A stretch of DNA of 46,330 nucleotides from a virus: the IMG/VR virus record IMGVR_UViG_3300028706_000433. One strand, 5' to 3'. A program made the position numbers and the translations under genes. Shown piece after piece: positions 5,547-35,948 of the stretch. The stretch's first letter is position 1. Every line of letters starts with the position of its first letter. Below the pieces are notes generated by a model. It saw nothing but the letters and a program-made list of their open reading frames with translations, made no database searches and was not told where the DNA came from.

Positions 5547-5754
5547 AAAATCACTTGATGAACGAGGAGTAAAGGCATTAGAAAGTATTGCCGAATCTTT
5601 TCAAACTATAGAAGATTCTATTTTGGATTTAGATATTCCAATGTGGAGTGAAAGATTAGAGTGGTATTTAAATGAGTTCTATCTTGTGGCTAAAAATAAA
5701 GTGATTGGTTCAGAGACAACCAGACCAGAACGAAAAGTAACAGTCAAAAAATGA
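5536..5754 (+). CDS. Hypothetical protein, 72 aa
   Basis: GGAG RBS at about 5526; ATGA overlap with the next gene; acidic helical sequence with no recognised motif. Confidence 0.7.
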   Translation: MADKKSLDERGVKALESIAESFQTIEDSILDLDIPMWSERLEWYLNEFYLVAKNKVIGSETTRPERKVTVKK

Positions 5755-7181: not shown

Positions 7182-7197
7182 GAATGAGGAGATAAAC

Positions 7198-7314
7198 ATG
7201 AAATGTAAATGTTGTAATTGGTTAAAAAATATTATCGATAAGGTAAGATTAGAAATTAGATATAAGAAAAAAATAAAAGAATTACGAAAAAGAGATCCCT
7301 TTATTTATAAATGA
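7198..7314 (+). CDS. 38-aa basic peptide MKCKCCNWLKNIIDKVRLEIRYKKKIKELRKRDPFIYK (not in ORF track)
   Basis: GAGGAG RBS at 7186-7191; ATG 7198; TGA 7312-7314 overlaps the ATG of the first radical SAM gene. Confidence 0.75.
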   Translation: MKCKCCNWLKNIIDKVRLEIRYKKKIKELRKRDPFIYK

Positions 7315-8609: not shown

Positions 8610-9810
8610 GTTATACAATTCTAAAGTTTTTTGTATGATGCCTTGGATACATACTCATATATGGCCAAGTGGTAAGGCCTTTCCTTGCTGTATGTCCGAT
8701 AGTACAGTCGAGTATGGTAATCTTAATGATAACAGTTTAGAAGAAATTTGGAACAATGACAAGTACAAACAACTTAGAAAGAATATGATAAATGATGATG
8801 AGACTAAGGAATGTAGTAGATGTTATGAGATGGAGAAGTCTAATGTATTTACATTAAGACAGATGGTAAATAAGCATTATATTGAACATTGGGATAGAGT
8901 GGAATCAACTAAAGAAGATGGAACGGTAGAAGAATTAAATATGGGTTATATGGATATTAGAGTTTCTAATATTTGTAATTTTAAATGTAGAACTTGTGGG
9001 CCAGAACTGAGTAGTGGATGGTATGAGGATCATATAAAACTATATTCACAACCATTAAATCCGAGAATAATGAATATAGCAAATAATGAAAAGTTTTGGA
9101 ATGACTTACAGCCATTACTACTTACAGTAGAAGAAGCTTGTTGGGCTGGTGGAGAACCAATCATCACAGAGGAACATTATAAGGTATTGGATTTTTGGAT
9201 TGAGAATAAGATGGAAGATGTTAGATTAAGATATACAACTAACTTTAGTAATCTTTATTTTAAAAAGAAATCTATATTAGACTATTGGAATAGTTTTAAG
9301 GATGTTAGGATAGCTGCAAGTCTTGATGGTATGGGTAAAAGAGGTGAGTTGATTAGAGCAGGAACTGAGTGGGACGTGATAGAAGATAATAGAAGAGAAA
9401 TGTTAAAAGAATGTCCTGATGTATATTTTGAGATAACACCAACGGTTAGTATTATGAATGTTTATCATCTACCAGATTTTCACAAGAATTGGGTTGAGAG
9501 AGGACTATTAGAACCACAAAATGTAAGAATGAATATACTAACTTATCCAGAAGATTATAGAATACAGATTATACCACCAAAGGAAAGAAAGATATTTATA
9601 GACAAGTATACAGAACATATAAAATGGATTGATGATAACTTTGGAGATGGTGCTGCAAAAAGTGGATTTGAATCAGTTCTTGATTTTTTACAACAAGAAA
9701 ATTATGAGAATCTTATACCTGAATTTATTAGTAGAAATAAAGGATTGGATGAATTAAGAGGAGAATCTTTATTTGAGATTTGTCCAGAGTTGGAATTTTT
9801 TAATGGATAA
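8593..9810 (+). CDS. Radical SAM protein with N-terminal twitch domain
   Basis: FCMMPW...FPCC...CSRC; ICNFKCRTC; WAGGEP. Confidence 0.9.
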   Translation: MKKYSKLYNSKVFCMMPWIHTHIWPSGKAFPCCMSDSTVEYGNLNDNSLEEIWNNDKYKQLRKNMINDDETKECSRCYEMEKSNVFTLRQMVNKHYIEHWDRVESTKEDGTVEELNMGYMDIRVSNICNFKCRTCGPELSSGWYEDHIKLYSQPLNPRIMNIANNEKFWNDLQPLLLTVEEACWAGGEPIITEEHYKVLDFWIENKMEDVRLRYTTNFSNLYFKKKSILDYWNSFKDVRIAASLDGMGKRGELIRAGTEWDVIEDNRREMLKECPDVYFEITPTVSIMNVYHLPDFHKNWVERGLLEPQNVRMNILTYPEDYRIQIIPPKERKIFIDKYTEHIKWIDDNFGDGAAKSGFESVLDFLQQENYENLIPEFISRNKGLDELRGESLFEICPELEFFNG

Positions 9811-10666
9811 TTTTCAATCAATAGGCACAGATAAGTTATCAATTGGTAAAAGAATTAAGATGGGTACAAGTTCTTTGGATACTTTACCATTTAAACAATA
9901 TGGAGTTTTAGATGATACTCAAACCACCGTAGTGTTAATACGAGATGTACTGGATAAATGGAAAAGTGGATATAAACAGGAATTAGAGGAAAAGTTTGAA
10001 CATGGGACTAATCTTTTTAATTTTGTAGAACGACCAGAAAATTTAAATCCAAATGCGTTAAGAAGATTTTGGCAACGATTTAAATATGGTTATTATACAA
10101 CATTTACAAACCCAGACGAAGTGACTTTGGTGGGATTGGAAATAATATCTAAATTACATGATTATTATGCAGATTTAAGTTGGATACATTATAGTCATGC
10201 AGAATTTTGGATGTGGAATGATGATACATATAAATCTTTATGGGAATTAGCATTAAAACCAAATGTATATTTTTTAGATTTAAAAGATTTAAGTAATCCA
10301 AAGTTTTTAGAATGGGCACATTATACTGATGCCGATTGGAAAAAAGTAAAAGAGTTTCCACATAGAAATCCAACCTTGAATAAATTTTGGCCTCAAATGG
10401 AGTTGTTATGGAAGGAATATAATGACGGTAAAATTTTGAAAGGGAAGATATTGGCATCACCATTTTTTGAAACTAAGTTACCAGATTTTATCGAAGGTAA
10501 AGAGTTTACATATAGAGAAATAGATTCTGAAACAAGATTAAAGTTTGATGTACATTTAAAATTGTGTAGGTTTCATCAAGATAGTGTAGATTATATAAGA
10601 ACTAATCCTGAGAGATATTTGAAGTTTGAAAAATTCAAAGGGAGAATAAAATCACGTTTGATATAG
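9803..10666 (+). CDS. Sulfotransferase-like protein (tentative)
   Basis: KMGTSSL resembles the 5'-PSB loop and IRDVLDKWKSGY the 3'-PB motif (RDPxxRxxSxY). ATG 9803 preferred over TTG 9773. Confidence 0.45.
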   Translation: MDNFQSIGTDKLSIGKRIKMGTSSLDTLPFKQYGVLDDTQTTVVLIRDVLDKWKSGYKQELEEKFEHGTNLFNFVERPENLNPNALRRFWQRFKYGYYTTFTNPDEVTLVGLEIISKLHDYYADLSWIHYSHAEFWMWNDDTYKSLWELALKPNVYFLDLKDLSNPKFLEWAHYTDADWKKVKEFPHRNPTLNKFWPQMELLWKEYNDGKILKGKILASPFFETKLPDFIEGKEFTYREIDSETRLKFDVHLKLCRFHQDSVDYIRTNPERYLKFEKFKGRIKSRLI

Positions 10667-12132
10667 AAAAACTAAAAAAGAGTAAAACATTTTGTCCATT
10701 TCCATTTATGAACCTAAACAGTAATACTGATGGTTCGGTAAAGATATGTTGTGCACAAAATGAAAACTTACATATAAAGAAAGATGATGGAGAAACTTTT
10801 AATTTATATGAGGATGATATAGACGAGGTTTGGAATTCTAAACATATTCAAGATATTAGGAAAAGACTTCTAAATGGAGAACAAATACAAGAATGTAATG
10901 TGTGTTGGAATATAGAAAATGCAGAAAAAGATTATGGTGGTCATGATGCACCAAAAAGTACGAGAATAGATAGTATAGAAAGTTATATGGAAAAAGATGG
11001 TATTTTTAATTGGATGGAAGATACACTTGAAAAAAATATACAATCCACTTTAGAATTTGGTTGGGTAAGAGAATCGTTAAAAAGTTTAGAACTTAGATTA
11101 GGAAACCATTGTAATCTAACTTGTAATATGTGTTGGGGTTATAGTAGTAGTAAGATTAATTCAGAGAGATTAACCTTATTAAAGAATAGGGATAAAACTA
11201 TGCCACCGTGGTTGTTTAATATGTGGTATCCAGAAGAATATAATATATCTAAAATTGATATGATGTGGCACGAGAATCCGAAATTCTTAGAAAATTTTAA
11301 AAAAGTAGCACCTACATTAAAACGATTGTATGTTACAGGCGGTGAACCAAGTATTATTGCAGCAAATACTAAAATTATAAATCATTTGATAGCTATAGGT
11401 AACAAGGACTGTCATGTATCTTTTACAACAAATTTGACAACTTGGAATATAGATTTGTATGAGAAATTAGAATTTTTTGACAAGAGTGAGGTTCAGGTTA
11501 GTATAGATGGTTATAAAGAATCTCAAGAATATATAAGATATGGTTCAACGTGGAGTGTAATAGAAGATAATTTTAAGAAGTTAATTCAATTACCAGATAA
11601 AGTTAGAATACAAATCTATACAGTATTTCAAGTATATAATATGTTTGAGACTTATAAAATGATGAAGTGGTTAGATTCTTTACGAATAGATGGATTGTTA
11701 AAAAGAGAAGTTGGGTTTTATTCTATATTGATAGACCAACCATTATATTTAAGGACGAATTTTATGCCTTGGGAAATTAGAGATAAGGCAATGAAACTAT
11801 ACAGAGAATTTTATGATTATTCAACATATGATAATGAATTTTTAGATTTTCATGGAACGGCCAATAAAATCATTTCTTATTTGGAAAGTAATTGGGAGCC
11901 ACATAAAAGTTATGGAAAGTATTGTCAAGGTGTAGAACAGACAGAATTAAACCAACGGAAGATGTTTTATCAATATACACGGTATATGGATAAAGTTAGA
12001 AATACGAGTTTTTTTGAAACTTTTCCAGAATGGCGGGAGTTAAAAGAAGAATTTAATGAAGCTCAAGATGAACATTTAATGACACCTAATTGGTGGATAG
12101 ATGATAGAATACCAAAGAATAAAAGAAAATGA
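10651..12132 (+). CDS. Radical SAM protein with N-terminal twitch domain (start codon non-canonical or mutated)
   Basis: HCNLTCNMC and VTGGEP. The conserved KSKTFCPFPF segment lies upstream of the first ATG (10708). Frame is open from 10630; ATC at 10651 follows a GGGAG RBS. Confidence 0.85.
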   Translation: MTFDIEKLKKSKTFCPFPFMNLNSNTDGSVKICCAQNENLHIKKDDGETFNLYEDDIDEVWNSKHIQDIRKRLLNGEQIQECNVCWNIENAEKDYGGHDAPKSTRIDSIESYMEKDGIFNWMEDTLEKNIQSTLEFGWVRESLKSLELRLGNHCNLTCNMCWGYSSSKINSERLTLLKNRDKTMPPWLFNMWYPEEYNISKIDMMWHENPKFLENFKKVAPTLKRLYVTGGEPSIIAANTKIINHLIAIGNKDCHVSFTTNLTTWNIDLYEKLEFFDKSEVQVSIDGYKESQEYIRYGSTWSVIEDNFKKLIQLPDKVRIQIYTVFQVYNMFETYKMMKWLDSLRIDGLLKREVGFYSILIDQPLYLRTNFMPWEIRDKAMKLYREFYDYSTYDNEFLDFHGTANKIISYLESNWEPHKSYGKYCQGVEQTELNQRKMFYQYTRYMDKVRNTSFFETFPEWRELKEEFNEAQDEHLMTPNWWIDDRIPKNKRK

Positions 12133-13154
12133 GTGATTTAGTAAAAATATTACCAGGAGAAAATAAATACTTAAGTGTTACTTGGCAAGTTAATAATTTT
12201 TGTAATTATAAATGTTCCTATTGTAATGAGGGTAATTGGAGTGGGACTCATAAGAATGAGGATACGGATACATATATACAATTTCTTGATAAGTTAATAA
12301 CAAGATTTCAGTTTAAAGGATATGATTCATTTAAGTTTTTCTTTTCAGGAGGAGAACCCGTATATTGGAAACCATTATTAGAAGTAGCGGAATTTATTCA
12401 TGAGAAATGTGATAAACCTTTATTGGCAATAAATACTAATTTGAGTAATTCAATAAATTGGTGGAAGAAAAATTATCATTTATTTAATGATGTGGTGGCT
12501 AGTTATCATATAGAATTTGTAAATAATGACCGTTATTTAGAGAATGCTAAATTCTTACAAGACAAAATGAATTATTTGGCATTACGAATGATGATGGACG
12601 ATTATCATTTTCAAGAAGTGATTGATGCAGGAAATAAGATTTGGGAAGAAATGGATAATTGTGTTTTGGAGTGGGTGCCATTATTAGATGAGTTGTCCAC
12701 TGGAGCACAACCTTGGTATTATAAAGAGAAATGGAAAAGAGAATTTTTTGAAAAGACTGATGGTTATCAAAGAAAGTGGGGAACGATAAACGAACACAGA
12801 GAATTTAGACCCGCGTATAGTTTAGAGGAATGGAACGATGGTAAAATACAACCAATAAATTCTAATAGATTAGCAGCCGAAAGATTGAATAATTTTGAGG
12901 GTTGGCATTGTTGGATAAATGATGCAATATTTATAAACCCATATGGAGATATTAGTGCGGCTAGTTGTGGAGTTAGTGGTAAAATAGGTAATATAAATGA
13001 GGATTGGATAGAATTTTTTGATTCACCAATTATATGTCCAAAATCACATTGTACTTGTGGAACTGATATAATAATTCCCAAGATAAGTCATAAAGTATAT
13101 AATGGAGAAGTAGATTATCCAGTATTAGATAAGAAAGAAATAAATGCCAGTTAA
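12129..13154 (+). CDS. Radical SAM protein with C-terminal Cys cluster (SPASM/twitch-like)
   Basis: FCNYKCSYC, FSGGEP, C-terminal HC...ASC...ICPKSHCTC. Confidence 0.88.
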   Translation: MSDLVKILPGENKYLSVTWQVNNFCNYKCSYCNEGNWSGTHKNEDTDTYIQFLDKLITRFQFKGYDSFKFFFSGGEPVYWKPLLEVAEFIHEKCDKPLLAINTNLSNSINWWKKNYHLFNDVVASYHIEFVNNDRYLENAKFLQDKMNYLALRMMMDDYHFQEVIDAGNKIWEEMDNCVLEWVPLLDELSTGAQPWYYKEKWKREFFEKTDGYQRKWGTINEHREFRPAYSLEEWNDGKIQPINSNRLAAERLNNFEGWHCWINDAIFINPYGDISAASCGVSGKIGNINEDWIEFFDSPIICPKSHCTCGTDIIIPKISHKVYNGEVDYPVLDKKEINAS

Positions 13155-15381
13155 AACAGCAATATGTATGTGTCCAGCTTGGTCTTTAGAGACTCCACCA
13201 TTAAGTCTTGGATTGTTGGCAGGTGCTCTAAAGAGTAAAGGTCGAGATGTTAAACAATATCATATTAATTTACTTTCTGCAATGCACGTAGATTATGAGA
13301 CTCATCAAGAATTATGGGCCCCAACTGGTCATTTCTTATGGACTAATGACCATTCTTTTGAAGATAAAATATTACCATTGTATGCAGAGTATTGGGATAC
13401 ATTAATAGAGGAATTGTCAACGTTTGATATTGTTACATTCACAACTTACTTCTCAAACATTGTAGTAACGGATTATATAGCTGAGAGATTATATAAGAAA
13501 AATCCCAATCTACATATTTTTTACGGCGGCCCATATTGTTGGAACGCACCACACGGGGGATTACGAATATCACATCCATTAGAAGAACCAGATAGAGATT
13601 GGATTAAACTTTCTTGTGATGCCGAAGGTGAATTAATAATAAATGATTTAGTAGATTGTTATGAGAATAATGAGAATTATGATACCGTACAGGGAATTTG
13701 GGTTTGGGGAGAAAATAAAAAACCGAAATTTACGGGTCTGAGAATACCACAAAAAGATTTAGATGTAATACCGAGAGCAAATTGGGAGGGGATGGAATTA
13801 CAGAATTATGCACCATTTCATTATGAAGGTCATGCACATTTACCATTACAAGGTTCTCGGGGATGTACTTATAAATGTACATTTTGTTCAGAGACAAGAA
13901 TTTTTAGATTTAAAAAAGGTCATTCTATAGCCAGAGAAATAATAGACCAAGTTGAGAAATATAATATAACACATTTCTCATTTGTGGATTCTCTTGTTAA
14001 TGGTTCAATGCCACAGTTTAAGATATTGGTAGATGAATTATGTGATGAAGTGGATAAAAATCCAAAATTGAAAGAATTAAGTCTTGGTGGATATGCAAGA
14101 ACACATGAGGAGATGGATGATAAATTAATGAAGAAAGCGGCCAAGGCAGGGTTTAAATGGTTATCTATTGGAGTGGAAAGTGGCACACCAAAAGTACTTG
14201 AGATTATAGAAAAGAGACAAACAAGAGAAGGAATTGAACAATTATGGAAGGCTTGTTGGAGACACGGAATACGAATGGATGCCAATTGGATTTCAGGATA
14301 TCCAAAAGAGAATCATATTGATTGGATAATTAGTTTATATTTCTTATATGAAAATAAACATTATATGCCAGTAGTTGCAGCAAATCAGTTTCCTGCAGGA
14401 GTAACTCCAGGTACGGCATTAGATCAATATAGAGATGTGTTTTCTATATCACAATATAGTACTATTTTTTATGATTGGGTAAGTGAAAATTTTAAGAACA
14501 CCTTTATTAATAGATTTTTAAGATTAAAATTAACTCACTTATATTTGGAGTTGTGGAAAGTATATTTTTCTGGATTTTGGACAGTTAGAGAAGATTTAAA
14601 ACATTTTAAAGTTAAAAATCCAAATAGTATTTTTAACCAAGAACAATATAAAGAATGGCCTCAAAGAACACAAGGAACTTATTGGCAACAATTACATAAT
14701 AGACACCAATTTCCACAAGAATTTGATATTAAAAAAATAAATTATAATGTTCCTTATTTAGAATTTGCAAATATTCCAGTACACGATGAGTATGATCCTA
14801 CGGTTAGTGTGGAAGATACTATAATGATAGAAACACGGAATGAAATACGTGTATGGTGTTGGTTAATATATCAATTGGTAGGCCCATATGATATTGAGGT
14901 AGAATTCGATGAGGATTATAGTGAGAGAAATATAGATGGTGCCAGATTAATAAGTAAGTTTAAGTTTACTTCAGAATTAGATGGTACTTATAAACTTGAA
15001 ATAAATAATAAATTAACCGTAGATGAGGCCGCCAAACAAACAATACATTTATGTTTACCGAATAAACTCGAACATTTTGATATGTTGGAATATAGAAAAA
15101 GAAAAAGACAGGTAAGAATTAAACACGCAGAAGATAAACATTTAAGAGCTAAACAGTATAAAATAAAAGATACTATAAATTTAAGTGCAGATGGAATGAT
15201 TGTAAATTATTATGATCTATCATTTGATGATAATTACGTAGATGAGGGAAATATGAACGAGAAATATGAAGATGAAAATTATTTGGTAGATAAATATGAA
15301 ATACCAAATTATATTGATGCTTTTGATATTGAAAAATATAAAATTAATTTAAAACGAACAATGATGACGGGAAAACATTAA
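13144..15381 (+). CDS. B12-binding radical SAM protein, 745 aa
   Basis: N-terminal PPLSLGLLAGAL...IFYGGPY cobalamin-binding-type domain; SRGCTYKCTFC; IGVESG; about 280 aa C-terminal extension. Confidence 0.88.
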   Translation: MPVKTAICMCPAWSLETPPLSLGLLAGALKSKGRDVKQYHINLLSAMHVDYETHQELWAPTGHFLWTNDHSFEDKILPLYAEYWDTLIEELSTFDIVTFTTYFSNIVVTDYIAERLYKKNPNLHIFYGGPYCWNAPHGGLRISHPLEEPDRDWIKLSCDAEGELIINDLVDCYENNENYDTVQGIWVWGENKKPKFTGLRIPQKDLDVIPRANWEGMELQNYAPFHYEGHAHLPLQGSRGCTYKCTFCSETRIFRFKKGHSIAREIIDQVEKYNITHFSFVDSLVNGSMPQFKILVDELCDEVDKNPKLKELSLGGYARTHEEMDDKLMKKAAKAGFKWLSIGVESGTPKVLEIIEKRQTREGIEQLWKACWRHGIRMDANWISGYPKENHIDWIISLYFLYENKHYMPVVAANQFPAGVTPGTALDQYRDVFSISQYSTIFYDWVSENFKNTFINRFLRLKLTHLYLELWKVYFSGFWTVREDLKHFKVKNPNSIFNQEQYKEWPQRTQGTYWQQLHNRHQFPQEFDIKKINYNVPYLEFANIPVHDEYDPTVSVEDTIMIETRNEIRVWCWLIYQLVGPYDIEVEFDEDYSERNIDGARLISKFKFTSELDGTYKLEINNKLTVDEAAKQTIHLCLPNKLEHFDMLEYRKRKRQVRIKHAEDKHLRAKQYKIKDTINLSADGMIVNYYDLSFDDNYVDEGNMNEKYEDENYLVDKYEIPNYIDAFDIEKYKINLKRTMMTGKH

Positions 15382-16646
15382 TGAAAGATTTAAAATATTT
15401 TTGTTCCCATTTATTTACTTCGTTGAGTTTTGACCATAGGGGAAAGGCTAGAGTTTGTTGTAACAACTATGAAGTACCAACAGGTGAAGACCTTGAACCA
15501 ATTGATGTATATTCAGAAGATTTTAATGTAAATGATGCATTTAATAGTGATTTGCATGTAAGAATTAGAAAGAATATATTAGAAAATAAACAGGATGAAA
15601 GTTGTAGTAGATGTTGGCAAACAGAAGATAATGGTGCTGAGAGTTATAGAACTATTTGGAATAATACTTTAGCAGGTGGATACCTAAAAGGAATAATGTT
15701 GGATTCAGTAGATGACGATGGTATTATAGATAAACCATTTATAACATTTTTAGATTTTACAATGGGTAATAAATGTAATTTGGTATGTCGAATGTGTAAT
15801 TTAAACAATTCTAATCAATGGGATTTAGAATCTGATTTATTGAATATAGAAATACCTTGGGATTATCCTAGCACTACATTACCAGTAGATGAGCGGTTTA
15901 TGGCTGATGAATTTTTTATGAAAAATTTCATGCATTTAAAACATATAAATTTTCTTGGTGGTGAACCTTTGATTGTGGATGAACATTATGAATTTTTAAA
16001 GAAATGTATTAAGTTTGAAGTAGCACAAAATATAGTTTTATCTTATACCACGAACTTAACAGTTATTAAAAAAGAACTTATGGGATTGTGGGAAAATTTT
16101 AGACACGTTTCAGTAGGAGTAAGTGTTGATGGTGTAGGTAAAGTAAATGATTATATTAGATATCCTTCAAAATGGAAAAATATAGAAAAAAATATTAAAA
16201 AAATATCAACTTATAAAGATGAGATTAGTATGGATTTACAAATACAATCTACTTTTCAAATGATGAATGTTTTGGATTGGGGTAATTTATTAGAATGGAC
16301 ATATAATTTAGGTGATTTGGGTTTTTGGAGATTACCTTTTAGTAATTGGGTAAGTTATCCAGAACATTATGATGCAAAATTATTACCAAAAGATTTAAAG
16401 ACGGAAGCATTAGAAAATATTAATAAGTTTCTTGATAGTAAGAAAGATGTTGTATGGGATATTGGTGAACAACAATGGTTAGGTATTTTGGAAAGTAACT
16501 TAAAGACTTTTGAGAAATCTTTTGATGATGACGAACAAGAGAGATATTACAAAACAATAAAAAAACATACTAAGTTACTTGATTTAAATAGAGGTCAACA
16601 TATTAAGGATTATATTCCAGAATTAGAAAAATTTATATATGAATAA
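15381..16646 (+). CDS. Radical SAM protein with N-terminal twitch domain
   Basis: YFCSHLF...RVCC...CSRC; KCNLVCRMC; FLGGEP. Confidence 0.9.
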   Translation: MKDLKYFCSHLFTSLSFDHRGKARVCCNNYEVPTGEDLEPIDVYSEDFNVNDAFNSDLHVRIRKNILENKQDESCSRCWQTEDNGAESYRTIWNNTLAGGYLKGIMLDSVDDDGIIDKPFITFLDFTMGNKCNLVCRMCNLNNSNQWDLESDLLNIEIPWDYPSTTLPVDERFMADEFFMKNFMHLKHINFLGGEPLIVDEHYEFLKKCIKFEVAQNIVLSYTTNLTVIKKELMGLWENFRHVSVGVSVDGVGKVNDYIRYPSKWKNIEKNIKKISTYKDEISMDLQIQSTFQMMNVLDWGNLLEWTYNLGDLGFWRLPFSNWVSYPEHYDAKLLPKDLKTEALENINKFLDSKKDVVWDIGEQQWLGILESNLKTFEKSFDDDEQERYYKTIKKHTKLLDLNRGQHIKDYIPELEKFIYE

Positions 16647-18135
16647 ATTATATTTTGGTTGGGATTATTATAATTATTCACATCAACCAGACATAAGTAG
16701 AATAATAGAGGAAAAATTTCAAGATTTTAGGCCGGATTTGACATACCCAAACGATTCTGATACTTTACCTTTGTTTAATGATGAGTATATGGTTACTAAT
16801 CCATGGCATCAACTTTTGGATGTATTAAAAGACTATGAAGTAGTAGCACATAGAGATACTACTGAATTAATAGAGAGGGATATTCCATTTATTTATCTTA
16901 TAGGTATAAGATCCGGCCCTCAAGAATGGGAAACTGATGATAGAAATAAATTATTTCATAATATAAAACAACATACTAAAAATTATATTAAAGATGGTAA
17001 GGTATTGGTAATAGTTGATATGTCGGGAGAAGGATATCCAGTAGAAAATTTGGACGAATTAACCTTTTCAGAAACAGGAGTAATTCCAAATATACCAATT
17101 GAAATAGAAAAGGCTGCTGACAGAGAAGACTTTCCATTAACTAATATGTGTTATTTAACTGGAAATGCAGAAGCAGTAAATTATGAACCGACTAAGATTA
17201 ATATTATTAATTTGTGTTGGTCTGAAATTGCTGTAAAGAAGTCAAATAATGAGGTAGATAATATTTTTGAAGAAGTTTTTGAATATAAGAAAAAACATGT
17301 ACGTAGACCAACAACAAAACATTTTTTAAGTCTTTGTAAGTTAGTAAAGGATTGGCGTTTATATCATTCGTTAGGTTTAAATCATTATAATTTACACGAA
17401 AAAGGATTAACTTCATTAATTATACCTAAAAATCAATTAATGATATTAAATGAACGACTTTGGCCAGGAGCAGCAGCTAAACCTTATGATTCGAGGATAG
17501 ATGATTCTTCTGATGAAACTGATTTTGTGTTTAATGAAAATATAACAGAGTTTGAAGAGTATATTAGAGTAATAAAACTTAAACTTCGATTGATAGGTAA
17601 TACGGAACACGGAAAGTATGTAAAATCTGATGAGAATATAAAAAGTTTACTTGAAAAATTACCATTATATGTTGATTTAAAATCATTTAAACAAAACGAT
17701 GGAACACCAATTAGTGGATTTAGTGTATGGGATGAGAGTTTTTATAACGATACATTTTTTTCATATTTGTATGAGAGTTACGCATATAATACTAAAACTA
17801 CTTATATTTCAGAAAAGTTTTGGAAAACAGTTTTAAATTTTCATCCAACATTATTAGTTACTAATCCACATACTTTGAGATATTTAAGAGATAGAGGATA
17901 TAAAACATTCTCACCTTTTATAGATGAGAGTTATGATAACGAAGAAGATTTTGATTTAAGAACAAATATGTTATTATCCGAAGTTAATAGATTATGTGAA
18001 ATGAGTAAAACAGAAATGTTGGATTGGTATTCTAAACAGTCTGATACACTTATTTATAATTTTAAAAAGTATTATGAGGATGATATTATAATAAAACCAA
18101 TTAATAAAATTAAAGGGTTGTATAACATATTATGA
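16639..18135 (+). CDS. Uncharacterised GT-B-like family protein, copy 1 (putative glycosyltransferase)
   Basis: C-terminal FSYLYES...YISEKFWK...FHP...GYKTFSPFIDESYD motif shared with five other ORFs in the window. Confidence 0.55.
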   Translation: MNKLYFGWDYYNYSHQPDISRIIEEKFQDFRPDLTYPNDSDTLPLFNDEYMVTNPWHQLLDVLKDYEVVAHRDTTELIERDIPFIYLIGIRSGPQEWETDDRNKLFHNIKQHTKNYIKDGKVLVIVDMSGEGYPVENLDELTFSETGVIPNIPIEIEKAADREDFPLTNMCYLTGNAEAVNYEPTKINIINLCWSEIAVKKSNNEVDNIFEEVFEYKKKHVRRPTTKHFLSLCKLVKDWRLYHSLGLNHYNLHEKGLTSLIIPKNQLMILNERLWPGAAAKPYDSRIDDSSDETDFVFNENITEFEEYIRVIKLKLRLIGNTEHGKYVKSDENIKSLLEKLPLYVDLKSFKQNDGTPISGFSVWDESFYNDTFFSYLYESYAYNTKTTYISEKFWKTVLNFHPTLLVTNPHTLRYLRDRGYKTFSPFIDESYDNEEDFDLRTNMLLSEVNRLCEMSKTEMLDWYSKQSDTLIYNFKKYYEDDIIIKPINKIKGLYNIL

Positions 18136-19688
18136 ATGATATAAAATTTGGTTGGGATTATTGGGATTACTCAAGACAGCCCGATATTAGAAAAATAATA
18201 AAAAAAGATTTTAATGGATTCTCTCCTGATGGAGTTTATCCAAACGATTCTGATACTTTACCGTTGTTTGATTCTAACTATCAACCAACAAATGCCTGGC
18301 ATAACATTTATAATATATTACAACACCACTATGATGGATATACTGAACTTGAAAATAAGGATACTACGGAGTATATAAAAAATAATGAAACATTTATATA
18401 TGTTATAGCAACAAATGGTGGGCCAGTAACTTGGTGTGGTGGTGATACAGAAAGAAATACTTTATTTCATAATATAAAAGAACACACAAAAGAATATATT
18501 AGAAAAGGTAAGGTGTTAGTTACTATAGATTTGTCGTTTGAAGGATTTCCAATAAATGGTGAGGATAAGTTAAGTATTTTAGATATGGGAAAACATCCTA
18601 ATTTAGCAGAAGTAGTTCATAGAAGAGCAAAAGAAGAAAAATTTCCAATAGAAAATATAGTATTTTTAAGTGCAAATTATAAAGATGTAGAATATTATAA
18701 AAATTGGTGTAAACGAAATAAAATTGAAACACCTATGAATTGGGTTTTACTTGATTGGTGTCAGAGAGCCATTTCTTCAGATTATAAACACTTAACAGAT
18801 AGATTTGAGGATCACTTTAATTATAAAAAAGATAATTTAGATAAAATGAAACATTATTTGTGTTTATGTAGACGATTAAAAACACCCAGAGTATTTCATC
18901 ATATGGCATTAAATTATTTTAATTTGTTAGATAAAGGTTCAGTATCTTGTATTTTACCAAGAAGGGAAATTTCACATTTATTTCCTGAATTAAATATAGA
19001 TAAATCTAAGATGGAAATGGATCATGCTGGAACGAAAACTTTTAGTGATTGTGCAAATTTAGAAGATTATGAATTTAATAAAACCTTGAAAGATAATGAA
19101 ATATTAGATGATATTACTGACGATTTTTATAATAGATTTAAATATCTTGAAGTGTTAGGTCGAACTAAATATTTATATAAAGTTAGAGATAAGAATAATA
19201 TAAGAGATTTTTTAAAAAAGTTACCTTTGACCGTAGATAGAAAAACTCACGATACTATAGATTCGTTTCATCATTGGGATTCTAAACTATATAAAGATAC
19301 TATGTTTTCTTATATATATGAAACTTGGTCTATGTCTACTAATATGGTTTTCTTTTCAGAGAAGATTTATAAAGCAATTTTAAATTTTCATCCATTTTTG
19401 GGAATGATTAATTCAGATACTTTAAAGTTTATGGAAAGAAATGGGTATAAGAGCTTTTCACCGTTTATAGATGAAAATTATGATGATGAAGGTGATCCAG
19501 ATATTAGAAGTGAGTTATTATTAAAAGAAATGCAGAGGTTATGTGAATTACCAATTAATAAAATGTTGGATTGGTATGGTGATCAATCAGATATATTGAT
19601 ACATAATTACGATGTTTTTATGAATAACACACATTTAGAGAAAAGTACAAAACAATTTTTAAAAGTATGGGAGAATATTAATGGCTGA
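18132..19688 (+). CDS. Uncharacterised GT-B-like family protein, copy 2 (tandem paralogue of 16639..18135)
   Basis: Shares FGWDY...QPDI...YPNDSDTLPLF with copy 1 (23-nt identity 16747-16769 vs 18240-18262); FSYIYET...FFSEKIYK...HPF...DENYD. Confidence 0.55.
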   Translation: MNDIKFGWDYWDYSRQPDIRKIIKKDFNGFSPDGVYPNDSDTLPLFDSNYQPTNAWHNIYNILQHHYDGYTELENKDTTEYIKNNETFIYVIATNGGPVTWCGGDTERNTLFHNIKEHTKEYIRKGKVLVTIDLSFEGFPINGEDKLSILDMGKHPNLAEVVHRRAKEEKFPIENIVFLSANYKDVEYYKNWCKRNKIETPMNWVLLDWCQRAISSDYKHLTDRFEDHFNYKKDNLDKMKHYLCLCRRLKTPRVFHHMALNYFNLLDKGSVSCILPRREISHLFPELNIDKSKMEMDHAGTKTFSDCANLEDYEFNKTLKDNEILDDITDDFYNRFKYLEVLGRTKYLYKVRDKNNIRDFLKKLPLTVDRKTHDTIDSFHHWDSKLYKDTMFSYIYETWSMSTNMVFFSEKIYKAILNFHPFLGMINSDTLKFMERNGYKSFSPFIDENYDDEGDPDIRSELLLKEMQRLCELPINKMLDWYGDQSDILIHNYDVFMNNTHLEKSTKQFLKVWENING

Positions 19689-21276
19689 ATATCATGATTA
19701 TGACGTAACAAATCAAAAATACGAGTTTCATAAAATAAAAGATAGAAAAAGAATACCGTTATACCACGAGAGGACTGATAGAGAATATAGTTGGACGGCT
19801 ACATATGAATTTAAAGGTCGTGATGGTAGTATGGGATTACCATTTCCAAATTGTTTACCCGATTCTGTATATGAAGAATTTAAAGAGAGTGAACATGAAG
19901 ATGCAAATTGGTGGATACAGTCTGGAGAGTGTAAAGAAATACCAAGGATTAGGGCGATAGAAAACGAACCATTTATGTTGATGTCACATTATGGGTTTTT
20001 AGTTACTCCAGAATCCGAAGAAAAAAATTATAAAGCAATAAATGAACAGTTTGAGTTATTAATAACAAATAAACGTGATGAAAAATATGTTTATTTAGTA
20101 CAACCTCAATCTATTGATCCAAATCCACAGTATGGTATATTTCAAGTATTGTCTAAAAATATACCGAAGGAAGTAATGGAAGATTTATCTAATGATAGGG
20201 CAGTTTTATGTTTATCTTTTATACAAGAAGGAGATAGTTATGGTGAATTTTTTCCAGAACTGCATAAGTTTTGTGAAAAACATACTATACCTCGAAAGAA
20301 TTTTGTATTTTGTTCGAATAATGCTATGTTAGAACTTGAATATGAAAACTATTGTGAGAAAAATAATATTACAGATAAGTCTACAATGATTTCAATTTAT
20401 TATTATTATAATCATGTTTCAACAATGTATAGATTAGATTATATGTGTTATAAAAATAATTGGGAGCCACCTCAAACAGTAAGAATTTCTAAAGAAGGAG
20501 ATAATTTTGAACATGATGGATTTAGAATAAATACATTAGAGAGATTTAATCCATTGAGAAAGGAAATTAGACCGTATCATTATATGTGTTATAATAGACA
20601 ACCAAAACTACATAGAACATTGATGGTAGCTTATTTGATGAAGGAGAATTTATTAGATAAGGGATTGGTAAGTTTAGCTTCGGTATATGCCATAAGTGCG
20701 GATGAACAAGATCAGTTTATACCATCATATAGAAATTTAAGAACACCAATATATACACAAGAAGAAAAGAACAACATAATGCCTTATTGGGATAAAGTAA
20801 TAAAACAAGGTTCATTTACTGTAGATTTAAATGAAAAAGAAATGGAACACGTTTGGTTATCTTCGTGGATAGATGTTTTCCCAAGTATATATAATCAATG
20901 TTATTTTTCAGTAGTGAGTTCTACAAGTTTTGATACTACTTGGATGCACCCTGACGAGAAATTTTGGAAGGAACTGGGACAATTTAAACCATTTATTTGG
21001 GTTGGCCCAGCACATTCATTACAACATCTACGCACACAGGGATTTAAAACATTTTCACCTTGGATTGATGAAAGTTATGATGAAGAAGAAGATTGTGAAA
21101 AACGGTTCTTGATGATAGTGGATGAAATCAAACGGCTGTGTGATATGAGTTTAGAAGAAATACATGAGTGGTATCACGAAATGGAAGATATTTTGAAACA
21201 TAATTGGAGAAGAATATTAAATTATAATCCTTCACCATTTTTTAAACCATACAATAAACTTTATGATTTACTATAA
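19681..21276 (+). CDS. Uncharacterised GT-B-like family protein, copy 3
   Basis: YMCYNRQPKLHR...YFSVVSST...PDEKFWK...KPFIWVG...GFKTFSPWIDESYD. Confidence 0.55.
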   Translation: MAEYHDYDVTNQKYEFHKIKDRKRIPLYHERTDREYSWTATYEFKGRDGSMGLPFPNCLPDSVYEEFKESEHEDANWWIQSGECKEIPRIRAIENEPFMLMSHYGFLVTPESEEKNYKAINEQFELLITNKRDEKYVYLVQPQSIDPNPQYGIFQVLSKNIPKEVMEDLSNDRAVLCLSFIQEGDSYGEFFPELHKFCEKHTIPRKNFVFCSNNAMLELEYENYCEKNNITDKSTMISIYYYYNHVSTMYRLDYMCYKNNWEPPQTVRISKEGDNFEHDGFRINTLERFNPLRKEIRPYHYMCYNRQPKLHRTLMVAYLMKENLLDKGLVSLASVYAISADEQDQFIPSYRNLRTPIYTQEEKNNIMPYWDKVIKQGSFTVDLNEKEMEHVWLSSWIDVFPSIYNQCYFSVVSSTSFDTTWMHPDEKFWKELGQFKPFIWVGPAHSLQHLRTQGFKTFSPWIDESYDEEEDCEKRFLMIVDEIKRLCDMSLEEIHEWYHEMEDILKHNWRRILNYNPSPFFKPYNKLYDLL

Positions 21277-21284
21277 TAACTAAC

Positions 21285-21413
21285 TATTTATATATAAGTC
21301 GAGTAGAGCTAACACGGGTGAAAAACCTGAAAGTCCTATCCCTCTACATTTAGACTATAAAACAAGGGTGGCATCAAGATAAATTGGTGCCTTCATTTAA
21401 TGGAGGCTTTTTA
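21285..21413 (+). promoter_or_regulatory. Putative promoter motif (TATTTATA) plus structured 5' leader with alternative hairpins over the RBS (riboswitch-like candidate)
   Basis: Pairings read by eye: AGTC 21297-21300/GACT 21353-21356; GTAGAG 21303-21308/CTCTAC 21342-21347; CGGG-TGAAAAA-CCTG 21315-21329; GGCATCAA 21370-21377/TTGGTGCC 21384-21391; GCCTTCAT 21389-21396/ATGGAGGC 21400-21407, followed by T5 and covering the GGAGG RBS. Confidence 0.6.
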
Positions 21414-22424
21414 ATGCGAGTTTTAATTACAGGTATAACAGGTTTTGTAGGTAGTCATATGGCAGACTACTTAATAAAAAATGTTCCAACTATACATATA
21501 TACGGACTTCGAAGATGGCGAAGCAGGTATGATAATGTACAACAATTATATAAAAATCCTAATGTTACTTTTATAGAAGGTGATTTAACAGATAGAAGTA
21601 GTTTAAATAGGGCAATAAAAATATCTAAACCAGATATTGTATATCATTTTGCTGCACAAAGTTTTCCAGAATCGAGTTTTGTAACACCCACATTAACATT
21701 AACAACAAATGTTCTCGGAACTACAAATTTATTAGAAGAATTACGTGAATCTTCAGAATGTGATCCCGTAATTATTAGTGTATCTTCTTCCGAAGTCTAT
21801 GGTAATCCTACCAAAGATGAAATCCCAATTAAAGAAACAAATCCAATTCGTGCTGCAAATCCATACTCAATATCAAAAGTTGGACACGATTTGATGTCAC
21901 AATATTATGCGAATGCGTATGATATGAAAGTTATAATTACAAGAATGTTTTCTCACGAAGGTAAAAGACGAGGAAAGTTATTTGCTTTATCTTCGTTTGC
22001 ATTTCAAATAGTAAAACACGAGAAATCAGAGGAATTTAATAAAGAAGGACATTGGTGTGAAATATATCATGGTAATTTAGGTTCAGTACGAACATATAAT
22101 CACATAGATGACGCAGTTCATGCATATTGGTTAGCAGCCAATAAGTGTGAGTATGGAGAAGTTTATAATATAGGTGGAGATGAAACATATACCGTAGGTG
22201 GAGCATTAGATATGTTGATATCAAAATCTAAAAACCCTGAAGTATTTATAAAATTACAAGATCCAGATAGAATGAGACCAACTGATATTACATTACAAGT
22301 ACCCGACAGTACAAAATTCAGAGAAAAAACTGGTTGGAAACCAACTAAAGGTTTAGAAGAAATATGTGATGATTTATTAGACTTTTGGAGAAGTCATAAG
22401 GATTTTTGGAGAGACCCCACATGA
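21414..22424 (+). CDS. gmd: GDP-mannose 4,6-dehydratase family SDR
   Basis: LITGITGFVGSH, HFAAQSFP, SSSEVYG, PYSISK (YxxxK), DITLQVPD. ATG 21414 with GGAGG RBS. A GDP-4-keto reductase (Rmd) role is not excluded. Confidence 0.75.
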   Translation: MRVLITGITGFVGSHMADYLIKNVPTIHIYGLRRWRSRYDNVQQLYKNPNVTFIEGDLTDRSSLNRAIKISKPDIVYHFAAQSFPESSFVTPTLTLTTNVLGTTNLLEELRESSECDPVIISVSSSEVYGNPTKDEIPIKETNPIRAANPYSISKVGHDLMSQYYANAYDMKVIITRMFSHEGKRRGKLFALSSFAFQIVKHEKSEEFNKEGHWCEIYHGNLGSVRTYNHIDDAVHAYWLAANKCEYGEVYNIGGDETYTVGGALDMLISKSKNPEVFIKLQDPDRMRPTDITLQVPDSTKFREKTGWKPTKGLEEICDDLLDFWRSHKDFWRDPT

Positions 22425-25433: not shown

Positions 25434-26018
25434 ATGGATAAACAATTTTTAATAGACTTCGAAACAGAAGTTAAAGAGAGATATGAAGCAGGAGAGATTA
25501 AGGCTCCAGTTCATCTTGCATCAAATAACGAAGATCAACTTATAGAAATATTCAAAGATGTTGGTAAAGATGATTGGGTATTTTGTAGTTGGAGAAATCA
25601 CTATCACGCATTACTACACGGTATTCCAAGAGATACACTTATGGATATGATTGTTCGTGGTAAGAGTATGAGTGTGTATTCAGACGAACCAAAGTTTTAT
25701 TCGTCATCAATAGTTGGTGGAATATTACCAATAGCACTTGGAGTAGCGAAATCAATTAAATTAAAGGGTGGAACAAATAAAGTGTGGTGTTTTGTTGGTG
25801 ATATGACATTCGAAACAGGTATATTTTATGAAACTTATAAATACAGTAGAAATTTTGAATTACCTTTAGAGTTTGTTATTGAAGATAATAACCTTTCTAC
25901 AAATACACCCGTTGATGAAACTTGGGGTGGAAAACAAACAGTGCCATCAGATGTATATTATTATCAATATAAAAGTGAGTATCCACATCACGGAACAGGA
26001 AATTGGGTGTTATTTTAA
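25434..26018 (+). CDS. Minimal ThDP-dependent dehydrogenase E1 alpha-like subunit (194 aa)
   Basis: PVHL, SWRNHYHAL, SSIVGG..PIALG, ThDP motif VGDM...IEDNN; GGAGG RBS. Confidence 0.85.
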   Translation: MDKQFLIDFETEVKERYEAGEIKAPVHLASNNEDQLIEIFKDVGKDDWVFCSWRNHYHALLHGIPRDTLMDMIVRGKSMSVYSDEPKFYSSSIVGGILPIALGVAKSIKLKGGTNKVWCFVGDMTFETGIFYETYKYSRNFELPLEFVIEDNNLSTNTPVDETWGGKQTVPSDVYYYQYKSEYPHHGTGNWVLF

Positions 26019-26548
26019 TGAAGTATAAAGATGAAATAATAAGAAGTATGGAGTGGTTAGGTAGAAAAAAAGATACTATTTTTCTTGGTCAATCCGTAAA
26101 ATTTAGTGGTAATGCAATTTACAATACATTAAAAACTTTACCTGAAGAAAAACGAATAGAATTACCAGTATTTGAAGAAATACAAATGGGAATGAGTACA
26201 GGAATGGCGTTAGATGGGTTAGTTCCTATTTGTTGTTTTCCACGATTTGATTTTATATTAAGATGTATGGATGCTTTAGTAAATCATTTAGATAAAATGC
26301 AACATATGACTGAAGGGACGTTTAAACCAAAAGTAATAATGAGAACTTCTATTGGTTCTAAGAAACCACTTGATGGTGGCATTCAACACACACAAGATTA
26401 TACAGACCCAATAATGCGAATGTTACATGAAGTTAATGTGGTGTTGTTAAATGAACCAGAACAAATATTTCCAGAATTTGAGGAAGCATATAATACAGAT
26501 TGTTCTACATTATTAATTGAGTGGGGAGATTATTATAATGAAAAATAA
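26018..26548 (+). CDS. ThDP-dependent E1 beta/transketolase pyrimidine-binding subunit lacking the C-terminal domain
   Basis: FLGQSV, ELPVFEEIQMGMSTGMAL, QLVNH-like ALVNH, QHTQ; TAATG overlap gives ATG 26018. Confidence 0.85.
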   Translation: MKYKDEIIRSMEWLGRKKDTIFLGQSVKFSGNAIYNTLKTLPEEKRIELPVFEEIQMGMSTGMALDGLVPICCFPRFDFILRCMDALVNHLDKMQHMTEGTFKPKVIMRTSIGSKKPLDGGIQHTQDYTDPIMRMLHEVNVVLLNEPEQIFPEFEEAYNTDCSTLLIEWGDYYNEK

Positions 26549-31224: not shown

Positions 31225-31236
31225 AATGGAGTTAAA

Positions 31237-31356
31237 ATGATATATAAAAAAAGAGAGTGGGATAATTCACCCGTTCCGTCAAGTTGGACTAATAAGATAA
31301 TTGAGTGGTTAGAAGAAACAGTTGAGTGGTATGAGGAGAAATACTATGAAAAATAG
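31237..31356 (+). pseudogene. Chimeric 39-aa mini-ORF at a tandem-duplication junction
   Basis: MIYKKREWD resembles the start of the 32161 oxygenase (MINKKQEWD); LEETVEWY matches the end of the 29465 SDR (IEETVEWY). GGAG RBS retained; stop overlaps the next gene. Confidence 0.65.
31310..31332 (+). repeat. 23-nt direct repeat, copy 2
   Basis: Exact match to 30372-30394. Confidence 0.9.
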
Positions 31357-33833: not shown

Positions 33834-34704
33834 AGGCGGGAACGCAATTCCAGATTTGGAAGTTGTAGAATTTTGGAAAGAATCGTTGAAGGATTTAACT
33901 GATGTGATTATCACAGACCATTATTCTTTCCCTAAAAATGGAAAGTTATTTACAGATAAATTTGATGAATATATTAAAGCATCAAAGTTAAATAATTTAA
34001 AAGGATTAGACACTTATGAACATAGGTCTTTTGTAGCAGGAACAAGTCAAACATTTGATAGTTTTTGGATGAGAAATCACGATAGAAGATTTAGATGTTT
34101 TAAAGGAGAATTCTTTTATCATAAAGCAAATTGGAAGAAGTTTCACACATGGTGTTATTTGGAAGATGAAGATATTCTACCTGATGATGCAGTTGTTATT
34201 AGTTTGCCATTTTCAGATTATGGTATGGAACATCCAAAGATGAGAGAAATATTAGATGAGTGTGAAAGATGGGGAGTACCTGTATTGATTGATTGTGCTT
34301 ATTATGTGATTGGAGAAGGAATAAACTTTGATTTCACAAAGTACGACTGCATTGAAGATATAACATTTAGTTTAAGTAAAGGTTTTCATCTTTCTAATAG
34401 AATACGAGGTGGTATAAGGTATACGAAAAAGTATTATGATGATAATATACATATTATGAATGAGTGGAATCAATACAGTCATTTATCCGCACATCTTGGT
34501 ACTAAATTGTTATCACACTTTCCTCCAGATTTTAGTGTGAACAAATATAAGAATAAACAACTTGAATTTTGTAAAGAGAATAATTTGAAACCAAGTGATT
34601 GTGTTATATTTGCTTTCGGTGGAGATGAATATAAAGAATTAAATAGAGGAACGGAAGTTAATCGTTTGTGTATATCATATCAGATTGGAGATAAATTAAA
34701 ATGA
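33811..34704 (+). CDS. PLP-dependent fold-type-I-like protein (aminotransferase-like)
   Basis: LIDCAY (Asp pairing with the pyridine N), FSLSKGF (Schiff-base Lys), RIRGG. Confidence 0.55.
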   Translation: MNITEKYRGGNAIPDLEVVEFWKESLKDLTDVIITDHYSFPKNGKLFTDKFDEYIKASKLNNLKGLDTYEHRSFVAGTSQTFDSFWMRNHDRRFRCFKGEFFYHKANWKKFHTWCYLEDEDILPDDAVVISLPFSDYGMEHPKMREILDECERWGVPVLIDCAYYVIGEGINFDFTKYDCIEDITFSLSKGFHLSNRIRGGIRYTKKYYDDNIHIMNEWNQYSHLSAHLGTKLLSHFPPDFSVNKYKNKQLEFCKENNLKPSDCVIFAFGGDEYKELNRGTEVNRLCISYQIGDKLK

Positions 34705-35948
34705 ATATAGGATTTATAGGATTGGGAAAACTTGGTTTACCATGTGCACTGGTAATAGAATCAAGGGGTCATAAAGTAGTAGGTTATGATCCTTCAGACC
34801 AAGTTAAAGAAATTATTGATACTAAAAAATTAAAGTATCAAGAAGTTAATGCACAAGGATTTTTAGATAAAAGTAAAATAGAAATAAAGAGTGTAGAAGA
34901 AGTAGTAAAACATTCAGAAATTATTTTTGTTCCAATACAAACACCACACGGTGAAAAGTTTGAAGGAACAACTAAAATACCAGATGAGAGAGAAGATTTT
35001 GATTACACTTATTTAAAACAAGGCCTTATGGATTTAGATGAGGAGTTAATAAAACAAAATAAGGAAATGGTAGTTATAGTGATTTCTACAGTTCTACCTG
35101 GAACAATTCGTAGAGAAATTTTACCAAATTTAAGTACTTATATTAAATTATGTTACAATCCATTCTTTATTGCTATGGGAACAACCATTGAAGATTTTTT
35201 AAGACCAGAAATTATTTTATTTGGTGTTGATGATAAAAAGGCCGCAGAAAAGGCAAAGAAATTTTATAGAACAATAAATCACGCTCCATTTTATGAAACA
35301 ACTATTGAGAATGCAGAATTGATTAAAGTTACTTATAACACTTATATTGGAACTAAGATAGCATTTGTAAATAACGTAATGGAAATGTGTGAACATTTAC
35401 CAAATACAAATGTAGATGATGTGATGAACGCCTTAAAAATGTGTGACGTTAGGATTATTTCAGATAAATACTTGAGTGGTGGTATGGGAGATGGTGGTGG
35501 TTGTCATCCACGAGATAATATAGCTTTGAGTTGGTTGAGTGATAAGTTGGGTGTGAGTTTTAATTGGTTTGATAATATAATGAAACAAAGAGAAGTTCAA
35601 ACTGAAATGTTTGCAGATTTGATAGAAGAACATTATGAAGATAAGAAAATTTGTATTCTTGGAAAGTCATTTAAACCTGAAACTAATCTCACGGTAGGAA
35701 GTCCAGCAATACTTTTAAAAAACATATTAGAAGATAGAGGACATGAGGTTTTTAACTGGGATCCTCACGTAGATGATTGGGATATAGTTTTAGATGAAAA
35801 ACCTTGTTGTTATTTTATAGGAACTAAACATCCAGAGTTTATAAGTTTCCCATATGAAAAGGGTTCGGTGATTATTGACCCTTGGAGATATATTTCAGAT
35901 ATAGATGGTTGTACAGTTATTCGATATGGTGATAATATAAATGATTGA
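34701..35948 (+). CDS. UDP-glucose/GDP-mannose dehydrogenase family protein
   Basis: IGLGKLG, VPIQTP, STVLPG, YNPFF, AELIKVTYN, GGGCHPRD (catalytic Cys), LGKSFKPET. Confidence 0.9.
   Translation: MNIGFIGLGKLGLPCALVIESRGHKVVGYDPSDQVKEIIDTKKLKYQEVNAQGFLDKSKIEIKSVEEVVKHSEIIFVPIQTPHGEKFEGTTKIPDEREDFDYTYLKQGLMDLDEELIKQNKEMVVIVISTVLPGTIRREILPNLSTYIKLCYNPFFIAMGTTIEDFLRPEIILFGVDDKKAAEKAKKFYRTINHAPFYETTIENAELIKVTYNTYIGTKIAFVNNVMEMCEHLPNTNVDDVMNALKMCDVRIISDKYLSGGMGDGGGCHPRDNIALSWLSDKLGVSFNWFDNIMKQREVQTEMFADLIEEHYEDKKICILGKSFKPETNLTVGSPAILLKNILEDRGHEVFNWDPHVDDWDIVLDEKPCCYFIGTKHPEFISFPYEKGSVIIDPWRYISDIDGCTVIRYGDNIND

Follow-up and report, generated by a model that had tools for sequence, protein, structure and literature searches.

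The leader and its locus

We analysed a 46,330-nucleotide (nt) stretch of viral DNA, IMG/VR record IMGVR_UViG_3300028706_000433 (hereafter the window), and within it positions 21277-21413, an intergenic gap between a 531-amino-acid (aa) gene without known family (19681-21276) and a short-chain dehydrogenase/reductase (SDR) gene whose ATG lies at 21414-21416. This gap encodes an RNA leader that is almost certainly a conserved cis-regulatory pseudoknotted element, and that probably acts as a metabolite-sensing OFF riboswitch of an undescribed family. The operon starting at 21414 consists of tightly packed open reading frames (ORFs) and, judged by that packing, runs at least to 31224. The features of the leader, with its helices (P1 to P3) and junctions (J2/3 and J3/2), and the first gene of the operon are as follows.

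21285-21295, + strand: putative promoter, an A/T-only element (TATTTATATAT) 1-2 nt 5' of P1, suggested by its conservation in homologues
21297-21356, + strand: helix P1, AGUC (21297-21300) with GACU (21353-21356), enclosing P2, P3 and the junctions
21303-21347, + strand: helix P2, GUAGAG (21303-21308) with CUCUAC (21342-21347)
21309-21314, + strand: junction J2/3, C-UAAC-A, conserved and unpaired
21315-21329, + strand: hairpin P3, CGGG (21315-21318), loop UGAAAAA, CCUG (21326-21329)
21330-21342, + strand: junction J3/2, AAAG-U-CC-UAU-CCC, in which 21335-21342 is the 5' strand of the pseudoknot (partner 21366-21371)
21357-21365, + strand: linker AUAAAACAA, with a conserved UAAA
21366-21371, + strand: tail GGGUGG, Shine-Dalgarno (SD)-like, the 3' strand of the pseudoknot, with CCUUC (21390-21394) as its alternative partner
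21366-21394, + strand: predicted antiterminator, hairpin A (21370-21391) extended by the pairs G21366-C21394, G21367-U21393 and G21368-U21392 in the minimum free energy (MFE) fold with the tail free
21389-21412, + strand: hairpin B, GCCUUCAU/AUGGAGGC (21389-21407), with a U-tract (21408-21412), terminator-like and predicted to sequester the SD
21414-22424, + strand: first gene of the regulated operon, a GDP-mannose 4,6-dehydratase-type SDR (PF16363, 7.8e-71)

An original prediction, made by reading the letters of the window, had proposed a riboswitch-like leader here, and every helix that it named (AGUC/GACU, GUAGAG/CUCUAC, CGGG/CCUG, hairpins A and B, and the UUUUU) was found where it had been placed; hairpins A (21370-21391) and B (21389-21407) do overlap, G21389-C21391 being common to both. 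The SD, GGAGG, occupies 21402-21406 inside hairpin B, and the ATG follows 7 nt further 3'. Both hairpins are terminator-like in a consensus terminator scan (2 found against 0.5 expected), and hairpin B, with eight pairs, four of them G-C, followed by UUUUU, is predicted from its sequence to be an intrinsic terminator. A leader peptide is unlikely; the sole ATG of the leader opens a four-codon frame that is not conserved. The gap holding the leader had also been called the sole long one in the locus, which is incorrect: four more lie at 5374-5750 (377 nt), 7182-7310, 31225-31321 and 40026-40362 (337 nt), and no Rfam match was found in 5374-5750 or 40026-40362.

A family of homologous leaders

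Homologues were sought in viral contigs and marine metagenome contigs, by pattern scans and then by covariance-model searches. Some of the viral loci that contain relatives of the dehydratase gene carry the same leader, with GUAGAG/CUCUAC replaced by GUGGUG/CACCAC. Pattern scans found the leader in 10 viral contigs and 98 marine metagenome stretches; the covariance models recovered divergent members that the patterns had missed, and a scan anchored on the 3' half gave more variants. Five pattern hits (L033, L041, L142, L161/L168 and L165) were rejected as chance matches in GC-rich coding DNA. The final family, from both kinds of search, comprises 79 hits with scores of 35-101 bits, 77 of them distinct, and the leader of the window, present in exactly one copy, scores 93.5 bits (E = 3e-18).

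Each of the five carrier viral records holds one copy of the leader, and two metagenome loci hold two: L080:224-311 and 2358-2457 (- strand), before GMD-like and fcl-like SDR genes, and L083:1040-1124 and 11267-11320 (+ strand), on one contig before different module genes. Because two copies share one contig, one phage can place several transcription units under the same signal.

When the search was extended to a set with one genome per species (185,579 species), two stretches matched the exact core pattern, one of them by chance. The true match is a contig (L141, genome G006) of the metagenome-assembled genome (MAG) NZWA01, labelled Flavobacteriales. This contig is probably a binned phage fragment, since the bin carries five T4-type gp23 genes on five contigs; the bin mixes contigs of several phages, and its Flavobacteriales label is not evidence of a host. 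In 150 more genomes from the same order as this MAG the leader model had no hit, and a comparison of the window with 50,697 phage records found no DNA similarity. The family so far seems confined to phages.

A conserved fold with a covarying pseudoknot

All 77 distinct sequences keep a common fold of about 85 nt, with covariation, in which the stem P1-P2-P3 is joined by a pseudoknot: CC-NAN-CC(N), a strand of an internal loop, pairs with (N)GG-N-GG, the 3' tail. From the 5' end, our alignment (A5) runs through P1 (AGUC/GACU), a six-pair P2, UAAC and P3 (CGGG/CCUG with a variable loop), and continues 3' of P3 with AAAG-N-CC-NAN-CC-N, the 3' strand of P1, UAAA and the tail N-GG-N-GG-CA. Standard pairs fill 97.6% of sequence-by-pair cells, compared with 84.1% in column shuffles (0 of 500 shuffles reach the observed value), and controls in which the partner strand was slid are at most 47.5% paired. 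Compensatory changes, on both sides of a pair, occur at 12 of the 19 pairs, with a covariation score of 0.357 versus 0.120. When the alignment was made with MAFFT, blind to structure, RNAalifold still predicted P2 and P3.

The helices differ in how they vary. P1 is paired in 95.7% of cells, with the variants UGUC/GACA and an extended AGUCC/GGACU; the five inner pairs of P2 are paired in every cell (100%), all five with compensatory changes, and its strands occur in 16 combinations; and P3 is paired in 98.4% of cells, with the compensatory variants CGAG/CUUG and GGG/CCC. The P3 loop is variable (UGAAAAU, UAACCAAU and others), and 14 members replace it with an extra helix of 4-5 bp (GAGC/GCUU or GAGAA/UUCUU, itself compensatory). 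A resemblance of this hairpin to the T-loop of cobalamin riboswitch L4 had been suggested from the pentaloop UGAAA and a 2-nt bulge, and finds no support in the loop sequences of the family: the pentaloop is not conserved, being present in some members and exchanged for UAACC, UGAGA, UAUAA or the inserted helix in others. Unpaired positions are conserved elsewhere. The AAC of J2/3 is invariant even in members whose search pattern left these positions free, and the linker UAAA is conserved though the first search pattern did not ask for it either.

The pseudoknot accounts for a pairing that the original prediction had noticed and read differently. It had paired AGGGUGG with CUAUCCCU and expected the duplex to break up the 5' fold; the complementarity is real (GGGUGG, 21366-21371, with CC..CCC, 21335-21342), but rather than disrupting the 5' fold it is a conserved part of it. 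Two pseudoknot pairs covary, although the covariance model used for searching and aligning had no pseudoknot pairs: the outer pair is C-G in 44 members, G-C in 14, U-A in 14 and something else in 4, and the middle pair is U-A in 40, A-U in 23, C-G in 1 and something else in 12.

Genomic context of the family

In all 77 distinct members a gene on the same strand starts 3-90 nt 3' of the leader and, where it can be read, belongs to a nucleotide-sugar set. The first downstream gene is a GMD-like SDR in about 19 members, an RmlC-like epimerase (PF00908) in about 26, DUF6071 in 12 and Transket_pyr-like in 5 (these last being weak Pfam hits below the family cut-off), and the remainder are other SDRs, PhyH and 2OG-Fe(II) oxygenase genes; all of these families recur in the window's own operon 3' of the leader. 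For the GMD-like, RmlC-like, E1_dh-like, Transket_pyr-like and three SDR genes of the window, 18-51 of 76 members have a homologue 3' of the leader, and upstream hits to these genes amount to one each for two of the SDRs. Homologues of two 500-aa genes of unknown function lie mainly upstream (20 each, one of them also 7 times downstream), as do those of the radical-SAM/SPASM genes. As the downstream set is constant and mostly absent upstream, the leader marks the 5' boundary of one conserved nucleotide-sugar tailoring module, which comprises a 4,6-dehydratase, a 3,5-epimerase, a thiamine-diphosphate E1 alpha/beta-like pair and several reductases.

The carriers are uncultured marine T4-like phages. 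The T4-type major capsid protein gp23 (PF07068) is encoded in four of the five carrier viral records, and the closest capsids from isolates, those of Flavobacterium phage immuto and Microcystis phage Mel-JY01, are about 55% identical. Within the window, 38-46328 forms a single + strand glycan-tailoring island, which also encodes five SDRs and PhyH and 2OG oxygenases; its other genes include the following.

3790-5373 and 5751-7181, + strand: GT7-like galactosyltransferases fused to Laminin_G_3 domains
7311-16646, + strand: seven radical-SAM/SPASM proteins
16639-21276, + strand: three 500-aa proteins without family
25434-26548, + strand: split E1 alpha/beta-like thiamine-diphosphate pair
34701-35948, + strand: UDP-glucose dehydrogenase
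41702-43192, + strand: carbamoyltransferase

Promoter and transcript evidence

Upstream of P1, positions -13 to -5 are nearly free of G and C in 67 distinct homologues, and TAT[AT][AT]ATA is found there in 56 of the 67, while some homologues carry TATAAATA, the consensus of T4 late promoters; we infer a promoter before P1. The word TATTTATA was considered as a general promoter word and rejected, its 11 occurrences on the + strand of the window equalling chance expectation. Metatranscriptome contigs from two studies cover 21308/21315-21475, so that RNA libraries do contain the leader joined to the start of the gene, which counts as weak evidence; contigs assembled from RNA runs cannot show transcript ends, and gaps in their coverage are uninformative.

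Expression platforms and a proposed switch

Beyond the tail, the leaders fall into three platform types. In type a (13 members) the tail reads GGAGG and serves directly as the ribosome-binding site (RBS), with the AUG 3-10 nt further 3' and no terminator; in type b, to which the window belongs, hairpin A comes after the tail, and hairpin B and its U-run come next; and in type c, a strong terminator stands between hairpin A and a second hairpin that buries the SD. We folded the 59 members of types b and c twice, once with the tail free and once with the tail blocked, as a mimic of the pseudoknot. When it was blocked, 57 of the 59 were predicted to form a hairpin with a U-run 3' of it; when it was free, this terminator hairpin was replaced in 53 of the 57, and its 5' arm paired directly with the free tail in 50. 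For the window itself, the free tail gives the extended hairpin A (MFE -14.1 kcal/mol) and the blocked tail gives hairpin B (MFE -12.1 kcal/mol). Folding across the family thus predicts that the leader switches.

In the mechanism that we propose, transcription would probably start just 5' of P1, and P1, P2 and P3 stack into an aptamer-like domain in which, as the covariation shows, CC-NAN-CC(N) and the tail, (N)GG-N-GG, form the pseudoknot. The tail has a second potential partner in the CCU(U/C)C 5' arm of the downstream terminator. With the pseudoknot formed, and presumably stabilised by a ligand, this arm would be free to pair with the SD GGAGG, giving hairpin B and its U-tract; in this OFF state, transcription would terminate 1-6 nt before the AUG, and the RBS would be buried in any message that read through. 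In the ON state, an open pseudoknot would let the tail and hairpin A capture the arm instead, so that no terminator would form and the SD would be free.

The element most likely acts as an OFF switch, formation of the pseudoknot corresponding to OFF, because all three platform types give the same predicted polarity; in the 13 compact homologues the tail is the RBS, so folding of the full 5' domain would mean OFF. This reverses the original prediction, which had the gene ON when the 5' domain folds because it treated the pseudoknot as a competitor of the aptamer and not as part of it: with the tail held in the covarying pseudoknot, hairpin B is the predicted fold. Its more general proposal, that a conserved aptamer-like domain precedes an expression platform whose hairpins exclude one another, is supported.

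Two variants of the platform stand out. Three members (L112, L070 and L096) repeat the nine-base tail GGGAGGCAU exactly at the real RBS, so that both copies compete for one anti-SD arm, AUGUCUCUC; this looks like a duplication-based way to build a switch. L122:4635-4723 (- strand), which was excluded from all counts, is a natural deletion variant that lacks the tail, the 3' strand of P1 and the first (5') half of hairpin A and keeps an intact terminator hairpin; unless it arose as an artefact of assembly, our model predicts constitutive termination there.

Interpretation and alternative explanations

As expected of a riboswitch, the leader has a conserved structured aptamer-like domain with covarying helices and conserved unpaired nucleotides, lies consistently in the 5' untranslated region (5'-UTR) before functionally coherent genes and, computationally, has an alternative platform fold that overlaps the aptamer. 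Riboswitch-like leaders are a known kind of regulator, and the fold of this one is in no catalogue. We favour a metabolite-sensing OFF riboswitch, in which case the trigger would be a small molecule, the likeliest candidates being a nucleotide or a compound that arises, as product or intermediate, in the nucleotide-sugar pathway under control. The original prediction had suggested a nucleotide sugar, ThDP, B12 or SAM as possible ligands. A leader that binds a metabolite would add a new ligand class for RNA sensors, would imply that phages meter their own auxiliary metabolism, and would offer a handle on the glycan chemistry of these abundant marine phages. It would be a more speculative step, and one that we regard as rather doubtful, to assume a riboswitch class restricted to phages that binds a nucleotide sugar, or an intermediate of the branched- or deoxy-sugar pathway under its control, and shuts off the auxiliary glycan module by feedback during infection. 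If the ligand were a nucleotide sugar, the leader would be the first riboswitch known to sense one, and one that had evolved in viruses and was not borrowed from a host.

Several observations weigh against the riboswitch reading or reduce the force of the evidence for it. Taken alone, the leader of the window is not unusually stable (MFE -30.6 kcal/mol, z = -1.06 against shuffles), so the case for more than chance rests on the comparison of homologues. In that comparison the search patterns imposed part of the invariance of the core, and the sequences are related, so that the shuffle statistics overstate their independence. Four pairs, which make up most of the pseudoknot, are invariant G-C and hence uninformative, and 12 members, including the window (CCUAUCC with GGUGG), have U-U at the middle pseudoknot pair. 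The difference between the two predicted platform folds of the window (-14.1 versus -12.1 kcal/mol) is small, so that the choice of fold would be kinetic. One metatranscriptome contig (21188-21338) spans the proposed promoter, which may indicate read-through from upstream, and metatranscriptome libraries may contain DNA. Finally, what stabilises the pseudoknot could be a protein or another trans factor in place of a ligand.

This last point is the core of the alternative that survives best, in which the fold and the competition between terminator and antiterminator are the same and the trigger is a protein or other macromolecule, for example a phage RNA-binding repressor or antiterminator, a ribosomal protein, or a 30S subunit on the SD-like tail. 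T4-type phages use protein translational operators, such as those of RegA and gp32, and the carriers are T4-like (gp23 in four of five viral records); the tail is SD-like (GGAGG or GGGUGG), and the ligand of the riboswitch reading is itself a candidate only. Yet the element, which fits three helices, a pseudoknot and the invariant unpaired AAC, AAAG, UAAA and GGCA into about 85 nt, surpasses typical protein operators in complexity, it accompanies a metabolic module and not a regulator gene, and no conserved candidate binding protein was seen adjoining the leader in the members' neighbourhoods. We consider a macromolecular trigger possible, if on the unlikely side.

That promoter, leader and terminator together make a stable trans-acting non-coding RNA (ncRNA) of about 115 nt, with control of the downstream gene secondary, is very unlikely. 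The promoter-like element (21285-21295) and the terminator (21389-21412) would delimit such a transcript, and contig depth, a poor measure, is highest over 21308-21475 in two runs; but both RNA contigs continue into the gene, 13 members have no terminator and carry the tail directly at the start codon, and the element always faces and abuts a gene of one functional set. Least probable, and largely refuted, is that hairpin B terminates the upstream operon constitutively and that the 5' fold, whether due to chance or serving stability, has no regulatory role. Hairpin B and its U-tract do match the consensus of terminators, and the single-sequence fold is not significant, but the fold is conserved with compensatory changes in the 77 distinct sequences, upstream genes vary among contigs while the downstream set is constant, the aptamer tail can pair with the 5' arm of the terminator in 50 of 57 members, and type-a members have no terminator at all.

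Comparison with known systems

The original prediction had placed the leader outside known classes, and comparison with Rfam 15 (4227 families, at gathering score and at E<=10) agrees: nothing overlaps the leader in the window or in 20 homologues. There is no covariance-model match to the cobalamin, TPP or SAM classes in this search and no hit to small ribozymes (hammerhead, pistol, twister and others); the hits at E<=10 to ctRNA_pND324, snoRNAs and cyano-S1 are at chance level and lie outside the leader. No account of the motif turned up in full-text literature searches.

The leader resembles known riboswitches in how its parts could work together. PreQ1-II, SAM-II, SAM-V and NAD+-II (the pnuC motif) are pseudoknot riboswitches that sequester the RBS, and as a lead we note that in these, as proposed here, an SD-like 3' tail is pulled into a pseudoknot with a strand of an aptamer loop and expression is off; type-a leaders (...AUAGGAGGCAAAUG) have exactly this layout. 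They differ in that none of the Rfam models for these four classes matches the leader at E<=10, that the leader's strand sits in the P3/P2 internal loop of a three-helix stack, and that most members add a terminator/antiterminator relay. In this relay the leader is like the classical OFF platforms (SAM-I and TPP in Firmicutes), since the 3' strand of the aptamer, the antiterminator and the terminator overlap pairwise (21366-21371, 21366-21394 and 21389-21407), whereas its aptamer is unrelated and the 3' arm of its terminator doubles as the SD, so that one hairpin would give both transcriptional and translational control.

The closest counterpart in genomic context is the wcaG motif (RF01761; Weinberg et al. 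2010, PMC2864571), an orphan riboswitch candidate of marine T4-like cyanophages, which occurs in marine samples and phages with genes for exopolysaccharide and nucleotide-sugar synthesis (PMC2864571); PMC7266159 has no mention of it. In Synechococcus phage S-CAM7, the wcaG RNA (KU686213 162957-163052, 77 bits) precedes a hypothetical gene, a GDP-mannose 4,6-dehydratase and a GDP-fucose synthetase. The same record has another wcaG-like match, a weak one (27 bits, 162798-162895), 60 nt 5' of the true one (L146/L147, KU686213 162798-163052), and the two may form a tandem arrangement. The likeness between the two RNAs is one of context and not of homology: both occupy the 5'-UTR before exopolysaccharide or nucleotide-sugar genes of marine T4-like phages, but wcaG consists of three tandem hairpins with UGGUGCGGA and GUGGCG boxes, both of which are absent from the leader, and the nested, pseudoknotted P1-P2-P3 architecture of the leader is as unrelated as its sequence. 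The wcaG model (gathering score 42 bits; also at E<=10) has no hit in the window, 20 member loci or the five whole carrier records, while it scores 77 and 92 bits in two cyanophages used as positive controls, and the leader model finds nothing in two wcaG-bearing cyanophages. Since neither model finds anything in the carriers of the other RNA, the two are analogues and not relatives. The leader would then be a second, independent RNA solution at the position of the still-orphan wcaG motif; independent RNAs at the same genomic position may answer to the same signal, which would provide a comparative route to identifying it.

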